A stretch of 64,000 nucleotides of DNA, from IMG/VR virus record IMGVR_UViG_3300009149_000012, positions 1 through 64,000 of that record; one strand, written 5' to 3'. Under the pieces are notes generated by a model. It made no database searches, was not told where the DNA came from, and worked only from the letters and a program-made list of their open reading frames with translations. The position numbers and the translations under genes were made by a program. How positions within the stretch are numbered: position 1 is the stretch's first letter; the number at the start of each line of letters is the position of its first letter. This stretch comes from a virus. This document shows positions 27,445 to 41,705 of this stretch, in pieces.

Positions 27445-28452
27445 CTACTCCGCATGTTCCTCCATGGCGAGAACGAGCAAGCCAGAAGCGACGGCTGTCA
27501 TGGGATCATCCGCATGCCGAACCTCGCTGATCTCGATCGGGAAGCGCTTTCGAAGGTGTTCGAACTCATCGTTGAACACATCCATGAAGCCGCCCGCCAA
27601 GCTGGTGCCGCCACTCACCACGAGCGGAATTGCTGTTGGAAGATCCATGGTTCCACGCACGGCCTTGAATTGGGTCGCGACGTGTTCCAACACATAACGG
27701 ATCAAGCTGCGGACGTACAAGGCGAGTGCTTCGGCCTCCCGGTTGGACGCATTCGCCAAATCGATGCCCTTTTCCTTGATCGAACACATGCGGGCCGAAG
27801 TCGACCCCATCGCTCTTGCCGCCTGACTGTCGACCCAGTCGCCACCACGAGCAACCGAGAAGCTCATCCCCTCGATCGTCTGGAAGCTCAAAGCCACGTT
27901 CGCCATGCCAGCGCCGAAGCTGATTCCCAAGCCGGAAAAGTTCGTATCCGAACATTGGGAGAAAATGATCGCCATCGCCTCGTTGGAAGCGTGAGGGGTG
28001 TAGCCCAACTCTTGCGTGATCTTGCGGAAAATCTCCGTGTGGTAGATGACATCCTGCGTGGGATCGTCTACCGGGGCTGCCGGCACGCTGAAAAAGCAAT
28101 GCTCGTTCTCGACCACGGGCTCCCCAAGGACGTGCTCGACCAGCAAGCTCAACACTTGCTGCGCGTCCAACTCACCGGGGGCGATGACGCCCCTGGATAG
28201 TGGGCGGCGAGCCTCACGCTTAAACAAGTTCGCCATGCTCAAAGCTGAATCGCCGATGACGATGAGTTGGTCCTCCCGCTCGACGTAGCTCACCTTCGAC
28301 AGACGAAGCGTCCGCTTGGCCTCGATGTCCAAGTCAATGAAGGCGTCCCGCACACGCTTGAAGTACGCACGCTTGCCCTTCTGCCGGGCCGAAACAACAT
28401 TCATGGTCCCGATATCGAGACCGACCCCTGGATCCTTGTTCTCTGTTTCCAT
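27445..28452 (-). CDS. Actin-fold ATPase (MreB/MamK/ParM-like)
   Basis: Phosphate-1 GLDIGTMN, connect NEAMA, phosphate-2 ISFGAGMAN, RGGDWVD, adenosine VVSGGTS. RBS AAGGA before ATG 28452. Confidence 0.85.
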   Translation of the reverse strand: METENKDPGVGLDIGTMNVVSARQKGKRAYFKRVRDAFIDLDIEAKRTLRLSKVSYVEREDQLIVIGDSALSMANLFKREARRPLSRGVIAPGELDAQQVLSLLVEHVLGEPVVENEHCFFSVPAAPVDDPTQDVIYHTEIFRKITQELGYTPHASNEAMAIIFSQCSDTNFSGLGISFGAGMANVALSFQTIEGMSFSVARGGDWVDSQAARAMGSTSARMCSIKEKGIDLANASNREAEALALYVRSLIRYVLEHVATQFKAVRGTMDLPTAIPLVVSGGTSLAGGFMDVFNDEFEHLRKRFPIEISEVRHADDPMTAVASGLLVLAMEEHAE

Positions 28453-28474
28453 TTTCATCCTTATTTGCCCGTGG

Positions 28475-29062
28475 CTACAACTTCCACGGGTCGTTCTGCT
28501 CACCGCCGACACGTTGCTTGAGCAAGTAGACGAATTCCTCATGCTTGGAAGCAATGGCTTGGAGCAAGTCGTCCACACCCATGGTCAAGGTGCCGGCTTT
28601 GTCGAGCATATCATACGACGCACGCATGAATTCGAGCAATTGTTCCTCTGCCTTCAGGGAAAGCCCTGGCATCATATCCGGGCTCACATCGGCCGAAACG
28701 TCCAAATAGAGGTGCTCGATGAGTTGGTTCAGTAAGCTGAGTTGGGTCCCCACAGCGACCTTCTCAGGTCCACCGAGGCCCACCGCTCGCTCTGCCAACT
28801 GATCCACGAGGGGGACGATCCCTTCGTAGATCCGCATGAACAGCAAGTGGTCGCCATAGTAGTTGCTGCCACGGGTCTGCCAGTGGTGCGCCTGGTGGAT
28901 GAAAGCGAGCGCCTTGTGCCAAACAACCAAGAGCGCCAGGTGGTCGGCGGGGTTGCTTGCGTCCGCAGCGAGCTTGGCGATCCCGGAGCCCGGCAGGGGC
29001 AGGTAGGGAGGGCCATCCGTCATCCCATCATAGACCGAGGGGTCTTTCCAGATGTCTTTCAC
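28475..29062 (-). CDS. dps: Dps/ferritin-like protein
   Basis: HQAHHWQTRGSNYYGDHLLF...VDQLAERAVGLGG. Confidence 0.75.
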   Translation of the reverse strand: MKDIWKDPSVYDGMTDGPPYLPLPGSGIAKLAADASNPADHLALLVVWHKALAFIHQAHHWQTRGSNYYGDHLLFMRIYEGIVPLVDQLAERAVGLGGPEKVAVGTQLSLLNQLIEHLYLDVSADVSPDMMPGLSLKAEEQLLEFMRASYDMLDKAGTLTMGVDDLLQAIASKHEEFVYLLKQRVGGEQNDPWKL

Positions 29063-34373: not shown

Positions 34374-34607
34374 GTGACCATGATTCACGTCGAGTTGCGC
34401 AGCTACTTCGAAGGGCCCACCATCGGAATGGCGGAAATGGAGTCGCTCCCAGTCCCCCCGATGGTGGGAGACATCATCACCTTGCCAAAAGTCCATGGGC
34501 AATTCCGTGTGGATTGTCGGTGGCTCGATATCCGACACGGGATGACCAATCTCGTCCTGGCGGTCACGGAGATCAAGCGCAAAGGAATTTCTTGGGACAT
34601 CGATTGA
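34374..34607 (+). CDS. Small hypothetical protein
   Basis: 77 aa, beta-rich (PVPPMVGDII...FRV). Confidence 0.5.
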   Translation: MTMIHVELRSYFEGPTIGMAEMESLPVPPMVGDIITLPKVHGQFRVDCRWLDIRHGMTNLVLAVTEIKRKGISWDID

Positions 34608-34637
34608 TTGAGACCAAGCTCACGCCTTAGAGGGTGC
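34604..34637 (+). promoter_or_regulatory. Class A promoter motif
   Basis: TTGATT GAGACCAAGCTCACG CCTTAG AGGGTGC ATG. Confidence 0.75.
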
Positions 34638-34802
34638 ATGCAGACCGGAACCAAAGCCCTTCGCCAGACCGACACCAAAGCATGGGTTCAGCGTCATGGA
34701 GGCGGGTCGGCCAAGCGCCGTCGGTCGGCCGCTCGCTGCGAGAAGGCAATCGAGACCGCTACTCGTCGGGCTGGTAAGGCCGCTTGCAAGGAGACCTTCT
34801 GA
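34638..34802 (+). CDS. Small basic protein
   Basis: ATG at the class A motif position (MQTGTKALRQ...). Confidence 0.6.
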   Translation: MQTGTKALRQTDTKAWVQRHGGGSAKRRRSAARCEKAIETATRRAGKAACKETF

Positions 34803-34803
34803 G

Positions 34804-35088
34804 ATGGCTGCGACCCTCACCCAAGCCCAACGCAACGACATCTGGCGGCTGGCGCAGCCGGAAGCTGAGAAGAACGGCCTGTTCTTCTACGAACAAAATG
34901 GGACAGACGAGCACCTTGAGGCTCTCGAATCCCTTGGGCTGATCACGTTCCGGTCGGCCACGCACTACTTTGCCTTCTCCAATGGCGAGCTTGGCGAAGA
35001 GGACGGCTTCCTGGTCAACATCACCGAAAAGGGCCGCAAATCCTATGAGCTTGCTGCCGCCGCTGGGCTGCACTCAGCTAGCACCTGA
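34804..35088 (+). CDS. Small hypothetical protein
   Basis: GGAG RBS, then MAATLTQAQRNDIW. Confidence 0.6.
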   Translation: MAATLTQAQRNDIWRLAQPEAEKNGLFFYEQNGTDEHLEALESLGLITFRSATHYFAFSNGELGEEDGFLVNITEKGRKSYELAAAAGLHSAST

Positions 35089-35955
35089 AGCTCCAATGAA
35101 CGCCCGGGGGGTCAAAACCCCTCGACCCACGTAAGGTCCGAACGCCGACCTGATCCCGATGCCGTACTTCGGTTGCTGTACGCCTCGGATGATCTTCACG
35201 GTCTGCTTGGCCTTTTCGAGCATGTCGTTGAACTGATCGTTGGCCGAGTTGGCAGCGGCTTCGTATTTGCTGCTCCGCTCGATCGACAAGGAAATGCCGC
35301 CAATCGAGTAGTCGAATTCGTCGGCGATCCAGTTGATTTGGAGCGCTCGAAGGGCCCAGATCATGCCGCCCGTCAAAACGAGCGTGCGCCATTCGGGCCG
35401 AGACTGCATGAGGTGGTCGAGCGATCCGAACGGCGTGCGAGGGGGCGCAGCAATCGCCATGTCGAGCCCACGTTGGATGTACTCCAGAAGCTCTTCGTCC
35501 TCCCAGATGAACCCAAAGACCCTGTTGTATTGCTGGATCGTCTCTTCATGACTCGGCGGGCGGAAATGGTAGTTTCGGTCAGGGCAATTTGAGACGAGCA
35601 TCCCTGACTTATGAAGATAGAAATTGTGCCAATCCTCAGCCGTCAAGTCGTACATATACCGCCTTGGAGCCAAGGGCTTGATAGACATCACCTTTGCCCC
35701 CACGACGTCCGCACCAGAAGCCAACTTCCCAGCTTCAACCTTGGAAGTAGGGGACGTGAAAACCCGGTGACCCCATGTCAGAACGGAAGCCCCTCGGGTT
35801 GTGGTCACCTCAACAATGGTCTCTGGGCCAACTTCAACTCGATGTACATCGAGCACCCGCTTCCAATCTTCTGACCCTTCAGGAGACTTGGAACGAACCC
35901 TCAATGTACCAGCTTGAAAAGCCGCCTTGATCTTATCCTTCTGTGCCGTGTCCAA
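35074..35955 (-). CDS. C-terminal half of a split gene: IntC (about 123 aa) plus C-extein of a putative neck/adaptor protein
   Basis: Intein block B TWGHRVF, block F MYDLTAEDWHNF, block G LVSN/C (Asn 35589-35587). TTG start at 35955 after GGAGAAGGA. Confidence 0.8.
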   Translation of the reverse strand: MDTAQKDKIKAAFQAGTLRVRSKSPEGSEDWKRVLDVHRVEVGPETIVEVTTTRGASVLTWGHRVFTSPTSKVEAGKLASGADVVGAKVMSIKPLAPRRYMYDLTAEDWHNFYLHKSGMLVSNCPDRNYHFRPPSHEETIQQYNRVFGFIWEDEELLEYIQRGLDMAIAAPPRTPFGSLDHLMQSRPEWRTLVLTGGMIWALRALQINWIADEFDYSIGGISLSIERSSKYEAAANSANDQFNDMLEKAKQTVKIIRGVQQPKYGIGIRSAFGPYVGRGVLTPRAFIGASGAS

Positions 35956-36865
35956 AATCCTTCTCCGTCCAGACCAGGAAGTCCCACCCCATTGTGGATG
36001 CATAAGAGGAAGCCTCACGAAGCCTGTGTTGAACCTTGTGTGTTTCAGGCAAATCCAGCACCCAACTAGCCTTAACCTCAAGTAAAACCAAGTGATCATC
36101 CGTGTAGGTCACAACAAAGTCAGGCAGAATCCATCGCCCTGACGGAAGTTTGACCCTTGGCTCGAACACATAGGTTTTCACGTCAGGGTCTTCATCGAGA
36201 AGCGTGACCACGATACGTTCGTAACTACTACGGGTCCAGATCCTTGGCTTTGAACACTTCAGAGGTTCCACCCAAGCTCCTCGCCCCCTAGACCATTTCA
36301 CTGGGTCTTCGATCATGCGACGAGATTGAGCCTTGGACCTTCTCAGCCGCTCTTCTTCAGAACGATGGAAAGCCAGCAAATGGGCTCTTTCTTCTGGCCG
36401 CTGCCACCGACGAAGAGCCGACATGCGGCGACGCTCACGAACTTCGGGTCTTTGGTTCGCCAGCCGAAGAGTCTCTCGTTCCTCTGGAGACCGAATTTTT
36501 CCTCTATGGAAGTCGAATTTACCGTCTGCCCAATCTGCCCGAAGACTTTCCGACAACCAGGGCTTCTTCCGACCACGCCCCGCTCTACCCACACGAGCGG
36601 CATTTTCAACACGATTTGCTTGGGAAGCAGGGTTCCCGGTGGCCTGGGTGAGACGCTGGATCCCCATCAAGGAGAGACCCGTCAACCTGGACATTTCAAG
36701 CCAAGGCATACCGGCCTCATGTAGCTCGGTCACCAAGGCCCTACGTTTTTCGGCCACACCTTTGGGAGGACGACCCTTTTTCTGAAGTATCTCCCAAGAC
36801 AGTCCGTGTTTTTCAAGCAGGGGTGCCAGTTCAGGGGGTGCCGTGGATGGTTTCCCAGAGGTCAC
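35933..36865 (-). CDS. Free-standing homing-type endonuclease (HTH, basic linker, TnsA-like PD-(D/E)xK)
   Basis: RSSYERIVVTLLDEDPDV...EP...ILPDFVVTY...LLEVKASW...WTE; lies between the intein halves. Confidence 0.75.
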   Translation of the reverse strand: MTSGKPSTAPPELAPLLEKHGLSWEILQKKGRPPKGVAEKRRALVTELHEAGMPWLEMSRLTGLSLMGIQRLTQATGNPASQANRVENAARVGRAGRGRKKPWLSESLRADWADGKFDFHRGKIRSPEERETLRLANQRPEVRERRRMSALRRWQRPEERAHLLAFHRSEEERLRRSKAQSRRMIEDPVKWSRGRGAWVEPLKCSKPRIWTRSSYERIVVTLLDEDPDVKTYVFEPRVKLPSGRWILPDFVVTYTDDHLVLLEVKASWVLDLPETHKVQHRLREASSYASTMGWDFLVWTEKDFGHGTEG

Positions 36866-37319
36866 GGATAGTGGTTACCATTTTCTCACCATCCACGTCA
36901 AGCTCGACGGTCTCTTCTCCACCCACACAGTTATCCCTCAAAAGGATCCGGAGCCGGCGAATGAAGTCCTCTTCCACGCACGACATGGCGGTCACGCATT
37001 CAATCGTGCGGTCCACCACTTCAAATTCTTGAACAACCTGTTGGATCGGGCCGTTGACGAACTCTCGGAAGCTCCACCGAATCCGGTACTCGCCGATGTT
37101 GGCGTCGAGGGGGACCACAATGCTGGAGTAGTATTCTCCCACAGCAGGATGAGCCGGGGTGCGCCGGGGAACCCCAAGCAACACCTCTTGCCCTGCCGTG
37201 AAGTCATACAGGGCGTACGTGATCTCGGCAGCGTCGATGGGATGGTTCTGTGCGCTTTCGAGGAAGATGTTGAGGTCTTCCCGGCCTAGCTGCTGTCCTC
37301 GGTAGTACGCTGTTCCCAT
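36831..37319 (-). CDS. N-terminal half of a split gene: 130-aa N-extein plus 32-aa IntN
   Basis: ...LRILLRDN/CVGGEETVELDVDGEKMVTTIRDLWE (intein block A, Cys1 at 36929-36927), then stop. Confidence 0.8.
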   Translation of the reverse strand: MGTAYYRGQQLGREDLNIFLESAQNHPIDAAEITYALYDFTAGQEVLLGVPRRTPAHPAVGEYYSSIVVPLDANIGEYRIRWSFREFVNGPIQQVVQEFEVVDRTIECVTAMSCVEEDFIRRLRILLRDNCVGGEETVELDVDGEKMVTTIRDLWETIHGTP

Positions 37320-37320
37320 T

Positions 37321-37965
37321 CTAGTCGTCCAACGCTTCTTCTTCTTTGCGCAGACCCTTCAGGCGATTGTCGAAGCCATTGAACGCCTTTTCGGTGGCCT
37401 TCTGCATCTTTTTGGCCTTCTCACGGGTCTTCGAGATCAGTTCCGTGTAGTCGGATGGAACGCGTCCATTGGTCTGATCCTTGTTGTCCTTCATGACCTG
37501 CTCAAGCTCGTTCAATTCCTTGAGCAGGCCACTGTAGAACGAATCAGCTTCTTTTTCCTGGTGGTTGCCAAACTCGGGCCAGCCCTGTTCATTCTGCATC
37601 TTGCCAATGTTGGGCATTTTGTCTGACAGATCACGAATGTACTTGTTGGGGAGATCCTTCAGATCCTCAACCTCGTTCGACCACAAAGCATGGTCCCCCC
37701 GGGCCTCGGACAGTTCGTCTTTGAACTCCCAATCACTGGCGCTGTGAGCGTCGTCAATTTCGCTCCGGGTGCGAGGCTTCTTTTTCTCGGCAGGCTTGTC
37801 CTCACCCTTGGGCTCGTCCCCGCCCTGTTCCTTGACATGGTGCTTGGACTTATCAGCGTCAGGATGCTCGTGAAGATACTTTTTGAGCGCTTCAGGATTC
37901 GCGTGCTCCATAGACAAACCAAGGAAGCGAGCTACAACGCGTCGCGCAATTTTCTCATCACTCAT
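37321..37965 (-). CDS. Charged protein with N-terminal IARRVVARF motif
   Basis: Highly charged ORF within the operon. Confidence 0.7.
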   Translation of the reverse strand: MSDEKIARRVVARFLGLSMEHANPEALKKYLHEHPDADKSKHHVKEQGGDEPKGEDKPAEKKKPRTRSEIDDAHSASDWEFKDELSEARGDHALWSNEVEDLKDLPNKYIRDLSDKMPNIGKMQNEQGWPEFGNHQEKEADSFYSGLLKELNELEQVMKDNKDQTNGRVPSDYTELISKTREKAKKMQKATEKAFNGFDNRLKGLRKEEEALDD

Positions 37966-39170
37966 AACCAACCATACTTTCGGGTTCGGGGCAAGCCGTC
38001 ACTGAGATCGGAACACAAGGTTGCATCACAGACTCGGAACGGCATCATCTTCTCAAAGGCGGGGCTACAAGAGGATTTGCGGTACTTCCATGTGATACGC
38101 CAGTTGCCAGGCTGACTCTCCCAGCCTGCAAACCCGGCGACATGGAATTCCCCGTTGCCATCCCGAACCGGGATCTGGTTGCCAGGGCCCACGCAGACCC
38201 ATCCGCCGTGGTGCTGCATGCACAAGGTGTAGGTCACCTCGTAGGGCTCGACGTTGCCATCGAACCAGATCGCCAAATCCCCACGCTGCAAAAGCTGCCC
38301 GTAGCGAAAGCCTTCCGGGATCAACGAACAGATCGGCGTCAGGTCATCCACCACCATGTGGGCCGAAACGTTCGAAGTGCCGTGGACAATGCCGGGGACC
38401 GATAGGATCGCGCTGCTGTGGCCAACCACCTGACCGGAGGCGAGAATGAACATCGAGACGTCGCCTGTGAGCATCGACGATCCGAAGATCAATCCACCCA
38501 CAGCCAATTGGTTTTCGATGACAGCCGTGCCGGTGCCGTAGAGGTGTCCACCCACGAGCAAGTCTACCCAGATGGTACCTGCTATCGAAGAGGTTCCGCT
38601 TGCGGTCCCTCCCGCTGCAAGGGTCATCCGGTCGGCCACCATAGCAACGGCATCCCCAAGCGACACGCCATGAGCCGAGATCTGGGTCGTGATTGGCGCT
38701 GACAGGGAACTGTTGCCCACCATGAAGGCGTAAACCTTGGCGGGTGACCCAAGATATGCTGCAAGGGCCGAGTTGCCTTGGAGGGGCTGTGGGAGCGACA
38801 GGAGCCATGTTCCGGCGAGGGGTGCCGAAAGCGATCCGTCCCCAGCTAGGTCTGCCCGGGCTCCGAACGTCGCTGACAGGGTTGTCTCCGTGGTGGCTTC
38901 CCCTTCGAGAGACGTGGACAGCCCTCGGAGTCTGACCCCTCCCGCTGCAACCCCTGAATTGCCCCCCAACGCAGCGCCCACAGAGTGCAGTTTTCCCAGA
39001 AAGGGCGTGAGGGTGGACCCGCCCGCCATCCCCACTGCAATTGGAGTTACCGCCGCCGCTTGGGCTACAAGTTCACTCCCCCCACTCAAATCCGCCGACG
39101 CCGCTCGCACCCCAACGATTGACCCGAGAAGGGTCGCACCGTTCACAGAGATGCCAGTTACGTCAACCAC
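37962..39170 (-). CDS. Gly/Ser/Ala-repeat virion protein with a C-terminal beta-sandwich domain
   Basis: About 20-aa L-x-G-x-S-x-L repeats; the C-terminus resembles the N-extein of 36831..37319. Confidence 0.6.
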   Translation of the reverse strand: MVDVTGISVNGATLLGSIVGVRAASADLSGGSELVAQAAAVTPIAVGMAGGSTLTPFLGKLHSVGAALGGNSGVAAGGVRLRGLSTSLEGEATTETTLSATFGARADLAGDGSLSAPLAGTWLLSLPQPLQGNSALAAYLGSPAKVYAFMVGNSSLSAPITTQISAHGVSLGDAVAMVADRMTLAAGGTASGTSSIAGTIWVDLLVGGHLYGTGTAVIENQLAVGGLIFGSSMLTGDVSMFILASGQVVGHSSAILSVPGIVHGTSNVSAHMVVDDLTPICSLIPEGFRYGQLLQRGDLAIWFDGNVEPYEVTYTLCMQHHGGWVCVGPGNQIPVRDGNGEFHVAGFAGWESQPGNWRITWKYRKSSCSPAFEKMMPFRVCDATLCSDLSDGLPRTRKYGWL

Positions 39171-40702: not shown

Positions 40703-41125
40703 CTACTGCTCTTGCGCCGTGATCGAACTGACCGGGAAGGTGACCGTATCACCCGGGTCGACCGTCTTCGAGGCGGTGAGCGCACCGTAGTACAGCATGT
40801 TGCCGGCCGTGGCTGCGTCGAGAAGCGCCATGTGCGTGACGGTGCCCCAGGACAAGGTTGCCGTGGGGAAGGTCACTGCGCCACCCGAGTTGGTGGTCTG
40901 GCGGGGGGTACCAGCGGGGGCACCGAACAGACCTGTGGCTGCAACCCGTGCGTAGGCTGTGCCGACCGTGGTCACTTCCGCAACCTGGCTACCGGCGTTG
41001 CCGGGATCTGCCGTGAACAGGGCCACGTAGACCGCTGCCGGGCTGGTGGCGGTGAAGTTGGCGTTCTGGCAAAGCCAGAAGTCCAGGGTTCGTTCTTCAG
41101 CGTAGTACGTCTTGTTGTCGGCCAT
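40703..41125 (-). CDS. Small tail-fibre-associated protein (paralog of 39186..39569)
   Basis: SPAAVYVALFTADPG...YARV...FPTATLSWGTVTH...DAATAGNMLYYG. Confidence 0.7.
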   Translation of the reverse strand: MADNKTYYAEERTLDFWLCQNANFTATSPAAVYVALFTADPGNAGSQVAEVTTVGTAYARVAATGLFGAPAGTPRQTTNSGGAVTFPTATLSWGTVTHMALLDAATAGNMLYYGALTASKTVDPGDTVTFPVSSITAQEQ

Positions 41126-41705
41126 GAGTCAGTTCCTTGTTAGGAGGTTGGTCACCTGTAGATGCCTTATGAACAGAAAACCGATCATCCCACTCATCAA
41201 GAAACGCCGCCGCCGCCCGAAGCAGCGAAGCATCGTCTTTGGCATACCCAAGAACCAGGTTGCAATTTCGGTGGATCAACCCCCGCACACACTTGCCGCA
41301 AGACTTTTTCCCCGAACAGCACGTCCGGTCGTGATCCACACAAACGGAGAGAGGGTCCTTGCCCTCTTTGAGCATGGGCTTATGGCAAACAGCGCACAAA
41401 CCATCCTGAGCTTGCCAAAGGGCTTCGAAATCGACGTTGTACCTTCCTCGATACACGATGGCCTTGAACTGCTTGGGGTGTCGTAGCTGCCAATCCCGAG
41501 AAATCTGGGACGCACGGCCAGGATTCTTAGCTCGCCAAGCCGTTGTTCGTGCGTTGTACTTTTGAGGGTCGGCTGCTTGCCGAGCCGTGTTGTCTTTATT
41601 GGTGCAGACTTTACACTGGGCTCGGCGTTTGGTGGGATCGTTTCGTCGACACAGATGAAAGTCGTCTTCGTCTTTGTCTAGGCCACACTTGGTGCATCGC
41701 TTCAT
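41097..41705 (-). CDS. Endonuclease VII-family homing endonuclease
   Basis: CTKC...CKVC, then QDGLCAVC...CVDHDR...VRGLIHRNCNLVLG. Confidence 0.85.
   Translation of the reverse strand: MKRCTKCGLDKDEDDFHLCRRNDPTKRRAQCKVCTNKDNTARQAADPQKYNARTTAWRAKNPGRASQISRDWQLRHPKQFKAIVYRGRYNVDFEALWQAQDGLCAVCHKPMLKEGKDPLSVCVDHDRTCCSGKKSCGKCVRGLIHRNCNLVLGYAKDDASLLRAAAAFLDEWDDRFSVHKASTGDQPPNKELTHGRQQDVLR

Follow-up and report, generated by a model that had tools for sequence, protein, structure and literature searches.

A probable connector gene of a huge phage, probably fractured by an atypically split intein with a TnsA-like endonuclease gene between its halves

How can a protein of about 300 residues be produced from a gene whose two halves stand in different reading frames and are held apart by the gene for another enzyme? 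This question is raised by a locus in the viral record IMGVR_UViG_3300009149_000012 of the IMG/VR database, of which the first 64,000 nucleotides, referred to here as the window, were analysed. The record is a single sequence of 148,881 bp, and because CheckV rates this length as only 31% complete, its source is a huge phage, which is uncultured. The locus occupies positions 35074-37319, with every part on the minus strand. Judged from its sequence, it can be called with good confidence a fractured gene, in which the gene for a probable connector of ~300 aa is interrupted by a class-1 mini-intein with an apparent S2 split, an endonuclease gene lies between the intein halves, and the protein would be restored by trans-splicing. 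The term fractured gene follows Dassa et al. 2009, because a probable free-standing homing endonuclease gene fills the gap.

The interrupted gene and its family

The upstream open reading frame (ORF), 37319..36831, encodes 162 aa. Its first 130 aa (36930..37319) are the N-extein, mostly an immunoglobulin (Ig)/macroglobulin-like beta-sandwich domain, which ends ...LRILLRDN and is 92% identical to residues 1-130 of an intein-less homologue, P0002. Directly after ...RDN, the N-terminal intein piece, IntN (36834..36929), begins with Cys1; it carries block A, or motif N1, only and is closed after 32 aa by the stop codon TGA at 36833-36831. The rest of the intein is found in a second ORF, which starts 875 nt downstream of this stop, in a different frame, and encodes a polypeptide of 293 aa. 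This polypeptide opens with IntC (35587..35955), 123 aa counted from TTG 35955, comprising an N-terminal helix followed by blocks B, F and G. The C-extein (35074..35586, stop at 35076-35074) adds 170 aa, begins Cys+1-PDRNYHF and is mainly helical. When joined, the exteins (130 + 170 aa) make a protein of 300 aa reading ...LRILLRDN-CPDRNY.... These parts had been recognized in a sequence-only reading of the window, and its account was borne out for the first ORF (coordinates, block A and 32 intein residues), for blocks B, F and G in an ORF of another frame about 870 bp downstream with TTG 35955 and its own ribosome-binding site, and for a Ser-Asn/Cys junction without penultimate His that yields a product of about 300 aa. 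The separateness of the halves likewise stood, but the supposed gap is not empty, as an ORF of 310 aa (36865..35933) had been missed.

This third ORF, the probable free-standing homing endonuclease gene (35933..36865), is read in the third frame from a tentative GTG start at 36865 and shares 35 nt with the end of IntN and 23 nt with the start of IntC. Its conserved C-terminal codons (WTEKDF) make up the Shine-Dalgarno-like sequence GGAGAAGGA for IntC (35958..35966), which lies 2 nt upstream of TTG 35955, with its GGAG core 7 nt upstream.

The protein that is interrupted belongs to a large family. The C-extein has 1339 database homologues, most of them 296-306 aa long and intein-less, on contigs of up to 470 kb. 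The closest is P0002 (297 aa), to which the C-extein is 92% identical; a second comparison gave 92% over the N-extein and 89% over the C-extein. P0002 runs uninterrupted across the junction as ...LRILLRDGKPDRNY..., i.e. RDGKPDRNY, and other intein-less homologues, among them many IMG/VR loci, read RDNNPDRNY or RDNKPDRNY. A contiguous RDN-x-PDRNY had been predicted for homologues lacking the intein and was found in these sequences; since they are contiguous across the junction, the intein interrupts the motif that is best conserved in the family (RD-N/x-PDRNY, the slash marking the insertion).

The ~300-aa extein protein is probably a head-tail connector or neck protein, although the matches are weak. 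The PHROG family phrog_17327, named 'head-tail connector', was matched by the downstream ORF of the window at E 0.0065, by P0002 at E 7.9e-4, and by 25 of 40 homologues with a best E of 9.9e-8. Furthermore, a homologue from Tunturiibacter phage Tunturi_5 (30% identity) is annotated as head-tail connector. An AlphaFold 2 (AF2) model of P0002, with a mean predicted local distance difference test (pLDDT) score of 68, shows a confident macroglobulin/Ig beta-sandwich at residues 1-104, with Z 9.8 to macroglobulin (MG) domains and a root-mean-square deviation (rmsd) of 2.4 over 89 aligned residues. For its helical C-terminal domain, the one suggestive match was a chain of the phage P1 connector, 9ums_E (Z 7.4, rmsd 8.3, 122 residues), a similarity below the level trusted for helical proteins. 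A Foldseek search of the extein model against the PDB gave nothing at E <= 0.001, and a search of the ESM Atlas with the extein gave only unnamed viral clusters. Among the neighbouring genes are one for a tail-fibre-like protein and others for large proteins that lack annotation, as would fit a virion module; PHROG and Pfam left most of the ~30 neighbouring ORFs scanned without a match, and synteny did not settle the connector assignment. The earlier claim that a structural protein is built by trans-splicing is supported by the contiguity of homologues and the conserved split, while its 'virion neck gene' is weakly supported.

Two genes upstream of the locus, a protein of 402 aa is encoded at 37962-39170 of the window (minus strand). 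Its C-terminal domain is paralogous to the N-extein beta-sandwich (27%, 99 aa, E 1e-9), and repeats rich in Gly, Ser and Ala make up its N-terminal part.

Halves of one intein and the predicted splicing

Do the two pieces belong to one intein, and could it splice? Relatives were collected by a scan of IMG/VR with an alignment of IntC and extein, which returned 254 loci of the gene family; inteins were counted in the best 80 of these and were present in 16 loci, 14 of them distinct. In the window, block B reads TWGH (T60-x-x-H63), block F reads YDLT...HNF with D103, and block G ends Val-Ser-Asn123. Cys1, T60 and H63, D103 and the terminal N123 are all invariant in the 14 loci, an alignment that includes the window, and the IntC pieces carrying these invariant residues are 35-64% identical to that of the window. 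The residue at +1 is Cys in the window and Ser in the other 13 loci; alleles without the intein show Lys or Asn here, and occasionally Ser.

A single-sequence PDB search with IntC found its best matches at only E 0.3, so that a profile was needed. With a profile of the 14 IntC sequences, the Mja KlbA intein was matched at E 4.8e-9, the Spl DnaX mini-intein at 3.1e-5 and the Pho RadA intein at 4.5e-5. The Pfam family Intein_splicing (PF14890) matched the C piece at E 2.1e-5 with 24.8 bits, under its cut-off of 35.8 bits. The proportions of nonsynonymous (pN) and synonymous (pS) differences were 0.05-0.20 and 0.55-0.78 for IntN, and 0.20-0.34 and 0.61-0.88 for IntC. This pN/pS resembles that of the exteins, and dN/dS, the corresponding ratio of substitution rates, was 0.05-0.29 where dS was unsaturated. 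In addition, the database protein P0121 carries this intein in contiguous form at the same insertion site, and for this reason the two pieces are taken as halves of one HINT domain.

The complex of IntC and IntN was predicted from an alignment of 14 rows for each piece. It scored 0.88 on ipSAE (interaction prediction score from aligned errors) vs 0.01 for the best control, a mark attained by 58 of 80 solved complexes and by 2 of 110 mismatched pairs; contacts agreed between runs to at least 93%, and partner pLDDT was at least 79. As HINT folds have been solved, this score speaks for likeness to an intein and is not proof of binding by this copy. In the predicted complex, the extra N-terminal helix of IntC touches IntN. 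The pattern of beta1, beta2 and a DLWE helix before the stop, together with the contacts of the model, suggests a split of the S2 type by position.

Based on this anatomy, a mechanism may be proposed. A gene of the virion module would be interrupted within RD-N/x-PDRNY by a mini-intein split after its first helix, and three polypeptides would be translated from one transcript, namely ExtN-IntN (162 aa), the endonuclease (310 aa) and IntC-ExtC (293 aa). The three ORFs are probably co-transcribed on one transcript; a promoter/terminator scan found no promoter inside the locus and one weak terminator-like site, within the endonuclease gene. The 32-residue IntN would dock on the nearly complete IntC to give the HINT fold, in which Cys1, Thr60/His63, Asp103, Asn123 and Cys+1 would perform protein trans-splicing. 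The order of events would be an N-S acyl shift at Cys1, trans-thioesterification to Cys+1, Asn cyclisation and an S-N shift. These steps follow established intein chemistry. The outcome would be the 300-aa protein and two released intein pieces. The endonuclease would act as the engine of mobility and be dispensable for splicing, with its 3' end serving as the ribosome-binding site of IntC. It is the conservation of the intein and the predicted complex that point to trans-splicing.

Several features weigh against this proposal. The connector function is based on weak matches, and the contig represents ~31% of the genome, so that an intact second copy of the extein gene may be carried elsewhere in the phage. 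At the end of the intein, the penultimate residue of the window is Ser and not His; most relatives also end Ser-Asn, and His-Asn is kept in loci L011 and L015, in P0081 and in the GenBank sequence LR745208.1. In block B, the window has TWGH against the TGGH of 11 of 13 relatives. Finally, the ATG with which IntC starts in all 13 relatives is replaced in the window (ATT-TTG). The ATG of the relatives lies one codon upstream of the site homologous to TTG 35955, and because it is ATT here, IntC of the window must start at TTG 35955 or at the ATT one codon upstream.

Two rival explanations arise from these features. In the first, the halves would associate through the intein fragments without being ligated, and the intein pieces would be non-covalent dimerisation domains; such dimerisation is described for a fragmented phage ribonucleotide reductase (PMC3045599). 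Such an arrangement would accommodate the missing penultimate His and the block B Trp in place of the Gly of 11 of 13 relatives, and the predicted complex speaks to docking, not to chemistry. However, every splicing residue (Cys1, Thr/His, Asp, Asn and Ser/Cys at +1) is invariant in 14 diverged loci, and the +1 residue of empty sites is Lys, Asn or occasionally Ser, a pattern not expected under selection for binding alone. Association without ligation is accordingly regarded as unlikely.

In the second explanation, the locus would be decaying in this phage, with a C half that is poorly made or an intein that is inactive. Against such decay, all three ORFs are intact, GGAGAAGGA is a strong signal 2 nt ahead of the TTG, the exteins are ~90% identical to the intact homologue P0002, and no second intact extein copy is present in the 148,881-bp contig. 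The signs of decay are the change of ATG to ATT-TTG, confined to the window, and TWGH in place of TGGH; TTG start codons are common in bacteria and phages. Decay is thus considered quite unlikely. A reading of the locus as a pseudogene was rejected.

The endonuclease gene and the alleles of relatives

What is the gene between the intein halves? The middle ORF matched PF08722, the TnsA-like endonuclease N-terminal domain, at E 1.7e-5 and 25.7 bits (cut-off 26.5), and the same family was matched by all eight full-length relatives of the endonuclease, with a best E of 2.2e-8. The signature E...PD...ExK is invariant (E216, D249, E263, K265). A helix-turn-helix-like region forms the N-terminal part and a TnsA-like PD-(D/E)XK nuclease the C-terminal part, and the contig has the gene once. 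When the endonuclease was searched against PDB sequences, neither the single sequence nor a profile gave a meaningful match. We take the ORF for a free-standing homing endonuclease of the PD-(D/E)XK type, with a DNA-binding-like region at its N-terminus; it is predicted to cleave a target DNA. It has the E...PD...ExK catalytic signature in common with the N-terminal nuclease domain of Tn7 TnsA (PF08722), whereas it is a stand-alone gene with a helix-turn-helix-like N-terminus and is located inside an intein-coding sequence, not a transposon. A further free-standing gene, of the endonuclease VII/HNH-like kind, was observed in the same structural module at 41097-41705 of the window (minus strand; PHROG E 1.6e-18) and is likely another selfish endonuclease.

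The split is conserved in relatives. IntN is 29-39 aa long and always ends in a stop in all 14 distinct loci, and the frame offset between N piece and C piece differs by locus, being 0, 1 or 2. Proteins of the ExtN-IntN type form 25 database clusters of 117-168 aa, one of which is the window's own shorter call. In clusters made at 50% identity, about 35 start with IntC vs about 9 with a contiguous IntN-IntC. The same three ORFs, with one extein copy, were also found in LR745208.1, an unannotated 485-kb GenBank sequence of an uncultured phage, where the locus at 354707-357078 (L089:934-3308) has an IntN of 35 aa, an endonuclease of 347 aa and an IntC ending Gly-His-Asn/Cys.

The overlap of the endonuclease ORF with both intein pieces would be expected if frameshift errors concealed a single ORF for a maxi-intein with a nested endonuclease domain. 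This explanation is very improbable in view of the relatives: the stop after IntN is seen in 14 independent assemblies and in LR745208.1 with differing frame relations, endonuclease-deleted alleles keep the stop and the separate ATG, and three unrelated endonuclease families occur at the split position (TnsA-like and HNH here; a second intein, described below, has DUF559/Vsr-like at its homologous position). More generally, a sequencing or assembly artefact was excluded, at the level of sequence comparison, because the stop after IntN and a separate IntC start recur in independent assemblies.

In contrast to the split, the endonuclease gene turns over. It is full-length between the halves in L001, L002, L004, L006, L008, L018 and L070, and reduced to fragments in L005, L011, L012 and L015; in L010 the spacer between the intein halves is just 119 nt. 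Locus L007 equals L006 minus a clean deletion of 771 bp (L006:3120-3890) that takes most of the endonuclease gene; the flanks of the two loci are 100% and 99.4% identical, and IntN, its stop, and the ribosome-binding site and start of IntC are intact. In L009 (3172-4008), the slot of the TnsA-like gene is taken by the gene for an unrelated endonuclease, of the HNH family (Pfam HNH E 1.6e-9). The split intein is kept in every locus, whether the endonuclease is intact, decayed, deleted or replaced. Such presence, absence and replacement are typical of homing. Ahead of the IntC ATG, most loci keep the WTEKDF codons (GGAGAAGGA), and this holds for most of those with a decayed or deleted endonuclease too; no clear copy of a GGAGAAGGA-type motif is seen in L009 and L018. 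The 3' remnant of the endonuclease gene is probably retained because translation of IntC depends on the start signals that it carries.

The alleles with short spacers also bear on the idea that a self-splicing RNA intron harbours the endonuclease gene and that removal of this intron would give an mRNA for a contiguous intein. In L007 and L010 the spacers are 116-119 nt and the split persists. A length of 116-119 nt seems too short for a group I intron. Moreover, conservation at the protein level extends over the tail of IntN and the head of IntC, the stop and the start are conserved too, and a search of Rfam over 34500-38000 gave no match at E <= 1. Group I introns can also house free-standing endonucleases of this sort (PMC2677866), and yet an RNA intron is hardly credible here.

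A second intein site, ADEF/SYSIGG, was observed in the same gene in relatives (L001:4652-6276, L012:4646-5500, L018:4643-5119, and the C-terminus of P0121). The inteins of the two sites are homologous, with 27% identity (E 1e-10). In L018 the second one is contiguous; L001 has it atypically split, together with a DUF559/Vsr-like endonuclease gene, and L012 has a split form with what remains of an endonuclease. The middle piece found in L001, in L012 and among many database proteins (e.g. P0154-P0160) has the order IntC-a, extein, IntN-b; two trans-splicing reactions and three polypeptides would therefore be needed there. We know of no described natural case of one protein assembled by two orthogonal trans-splicing reactions. 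On balance, it is slightly more probable than not that the connector gene family offers a natural experiment in gene breaking by endonucleases: the inteins of its two sites occur contiguous, broken by unrelated endonucleases (TnsA-like, HNH, DUF559/Vsr-like) at one and the same early point, and with a decayed endonuclease, and both are split together in many relatives, whose protein would be assembled from three polypeptides by two orthogonal reactions.

Other observations on the same phage may be added. Beyond the window, intein-like matches lie on the minus strand of the contig at G000:C1:69058-69903 and 80872-82185 in continuous ORFs of 946 and 1101 aa, and thus the phage also has apparently contiguous inteins. 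An ORF of 377 aa at 27445-28578 of the window (minus strand) matches Pfam Volactin, a family of actin homologues, over its full length at E 2.8e-75; therefore, this huge phage encodes an actin-like protein.

Known fractured genes, atypically split inteins and the meaning of the locus

How does this locus compare with known systems? Dassa et al. 2009 reported 26 fractured loci, in eight DNA synthesis or repair enzymes and a terminase, with endonucleases that are GIY-YIG or Vsr-like; fractured genes were found mainly in phages, endonuclease-less loci were known, and one terminase intein was fractured at an unusual point, leaving a 122-residue C part that lacks motif N1 only (PMC2677866). The order of ExtN-IntN, free-standing endonuclease and IntC-ExtC on one strand is the same here. 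The host, however, is a probable virion connector instead of a DNA synthesis/repair enzyme or terminase, and the endonuclease is a TnsA-like PD-(D/E)XK enzyme, or HNH in L009, instead of GIY-YIG or Vsr-like. Furthermore, a spacer of 27-51 nt precedes the endonuclease gene in the loci of Dassa et al., whereas the present endonuclease gene overlaps both intein pieces and supplies the ribosome-binding site of IntC.

The intein itself is of a rare type. An atypically split intein is defined by a short IntN (15-37 aa) that carries motif N1 only, with the other motifs in IntC, and four natural ones, AceL TerL, GOS TerL, VidaL and PolB16, are cited in a 2026 paper (PMC13014065). Here, IntN has 32 aa and N1 only, blocks B, F and G are in an IntC of 123 aa, and the two are encoded by separate genes. 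According to PMC13014065 and PMC11766414, AceL TerL and GOS TerL are split at the S2 site, after the first alpha-helix, with an IntN of 25-37 aa and an IntC of 104-115 aa, sizes to which those of the present intein are near. AceL TerL has Cys1/Cys+1 chemistry, as in the window, and GOS TerL has Ser1/Cys+1. The host of these two inteins is the terminase large subunit, and the present intein is likened to them by split position and sizes, not by sequence; it differs in its penultimate Ser and in the extra N-terminal helix of IntC that contacts IntN in the model. PDB searches with IntC matched no chain of an intein of the AceL/GOS TerL type. AceL TerL and GOS TerL were reportedly described as atypically split inteins by Thiel in 2014 and by Bachmann and Mootz in 2015. 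VidaL and PolB16 OarG, natural short-IntN split inteins from metagenomes like the present one, are split earlier, at the S1 site after beta-strand 2, with an IntN of 15-16 aa (PMC10189870, PMC13014065); PolB16 is in a PolB polymerase and has Ser1/Ser+1 (PMC13014065).

The arrangement itself, a fractured gene with an atypically split intein, by position probably of the S2 type, is therefore known. What is new is a probable virion protein of huge phages as the host, a TnsA-like endonuclease, the overlap of genes with an IntC ribosome-binding site borne by the endonuclease gene, and a rich natural series of alleles. In the literature on inteins in phage structural proteins, of which coverage was incomplete, no description of this family was found. 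The family would stand fifth beside the four atypically split inteins cited in PMC13014065, and it offers dozens of diverged variants with IntN cores of ~28 aa, Cys1, Ser or Cys at +1, and a penultimate His or not, for which contiguous alleles are available as a matched comparison to the split forms. A short IntN is valued because it is accessible to peptide synthesis, for protein semisynthesis and labelling (PMC13014065), and the family would thus have practical value for split-intein engineering.

In conclusion, this locus takes fractured genes beyond the enzymes of replication and packaging, into a probable virion protein of huge phages; a TnsA-like enzyme joins the endonucleases known at such loci. 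The set of intein-less, contiguous, fractured, endonuclease-deleted and endonuclease-replaced alleles directly supports the 2009 gene-breaking model for the origin of split inteins.

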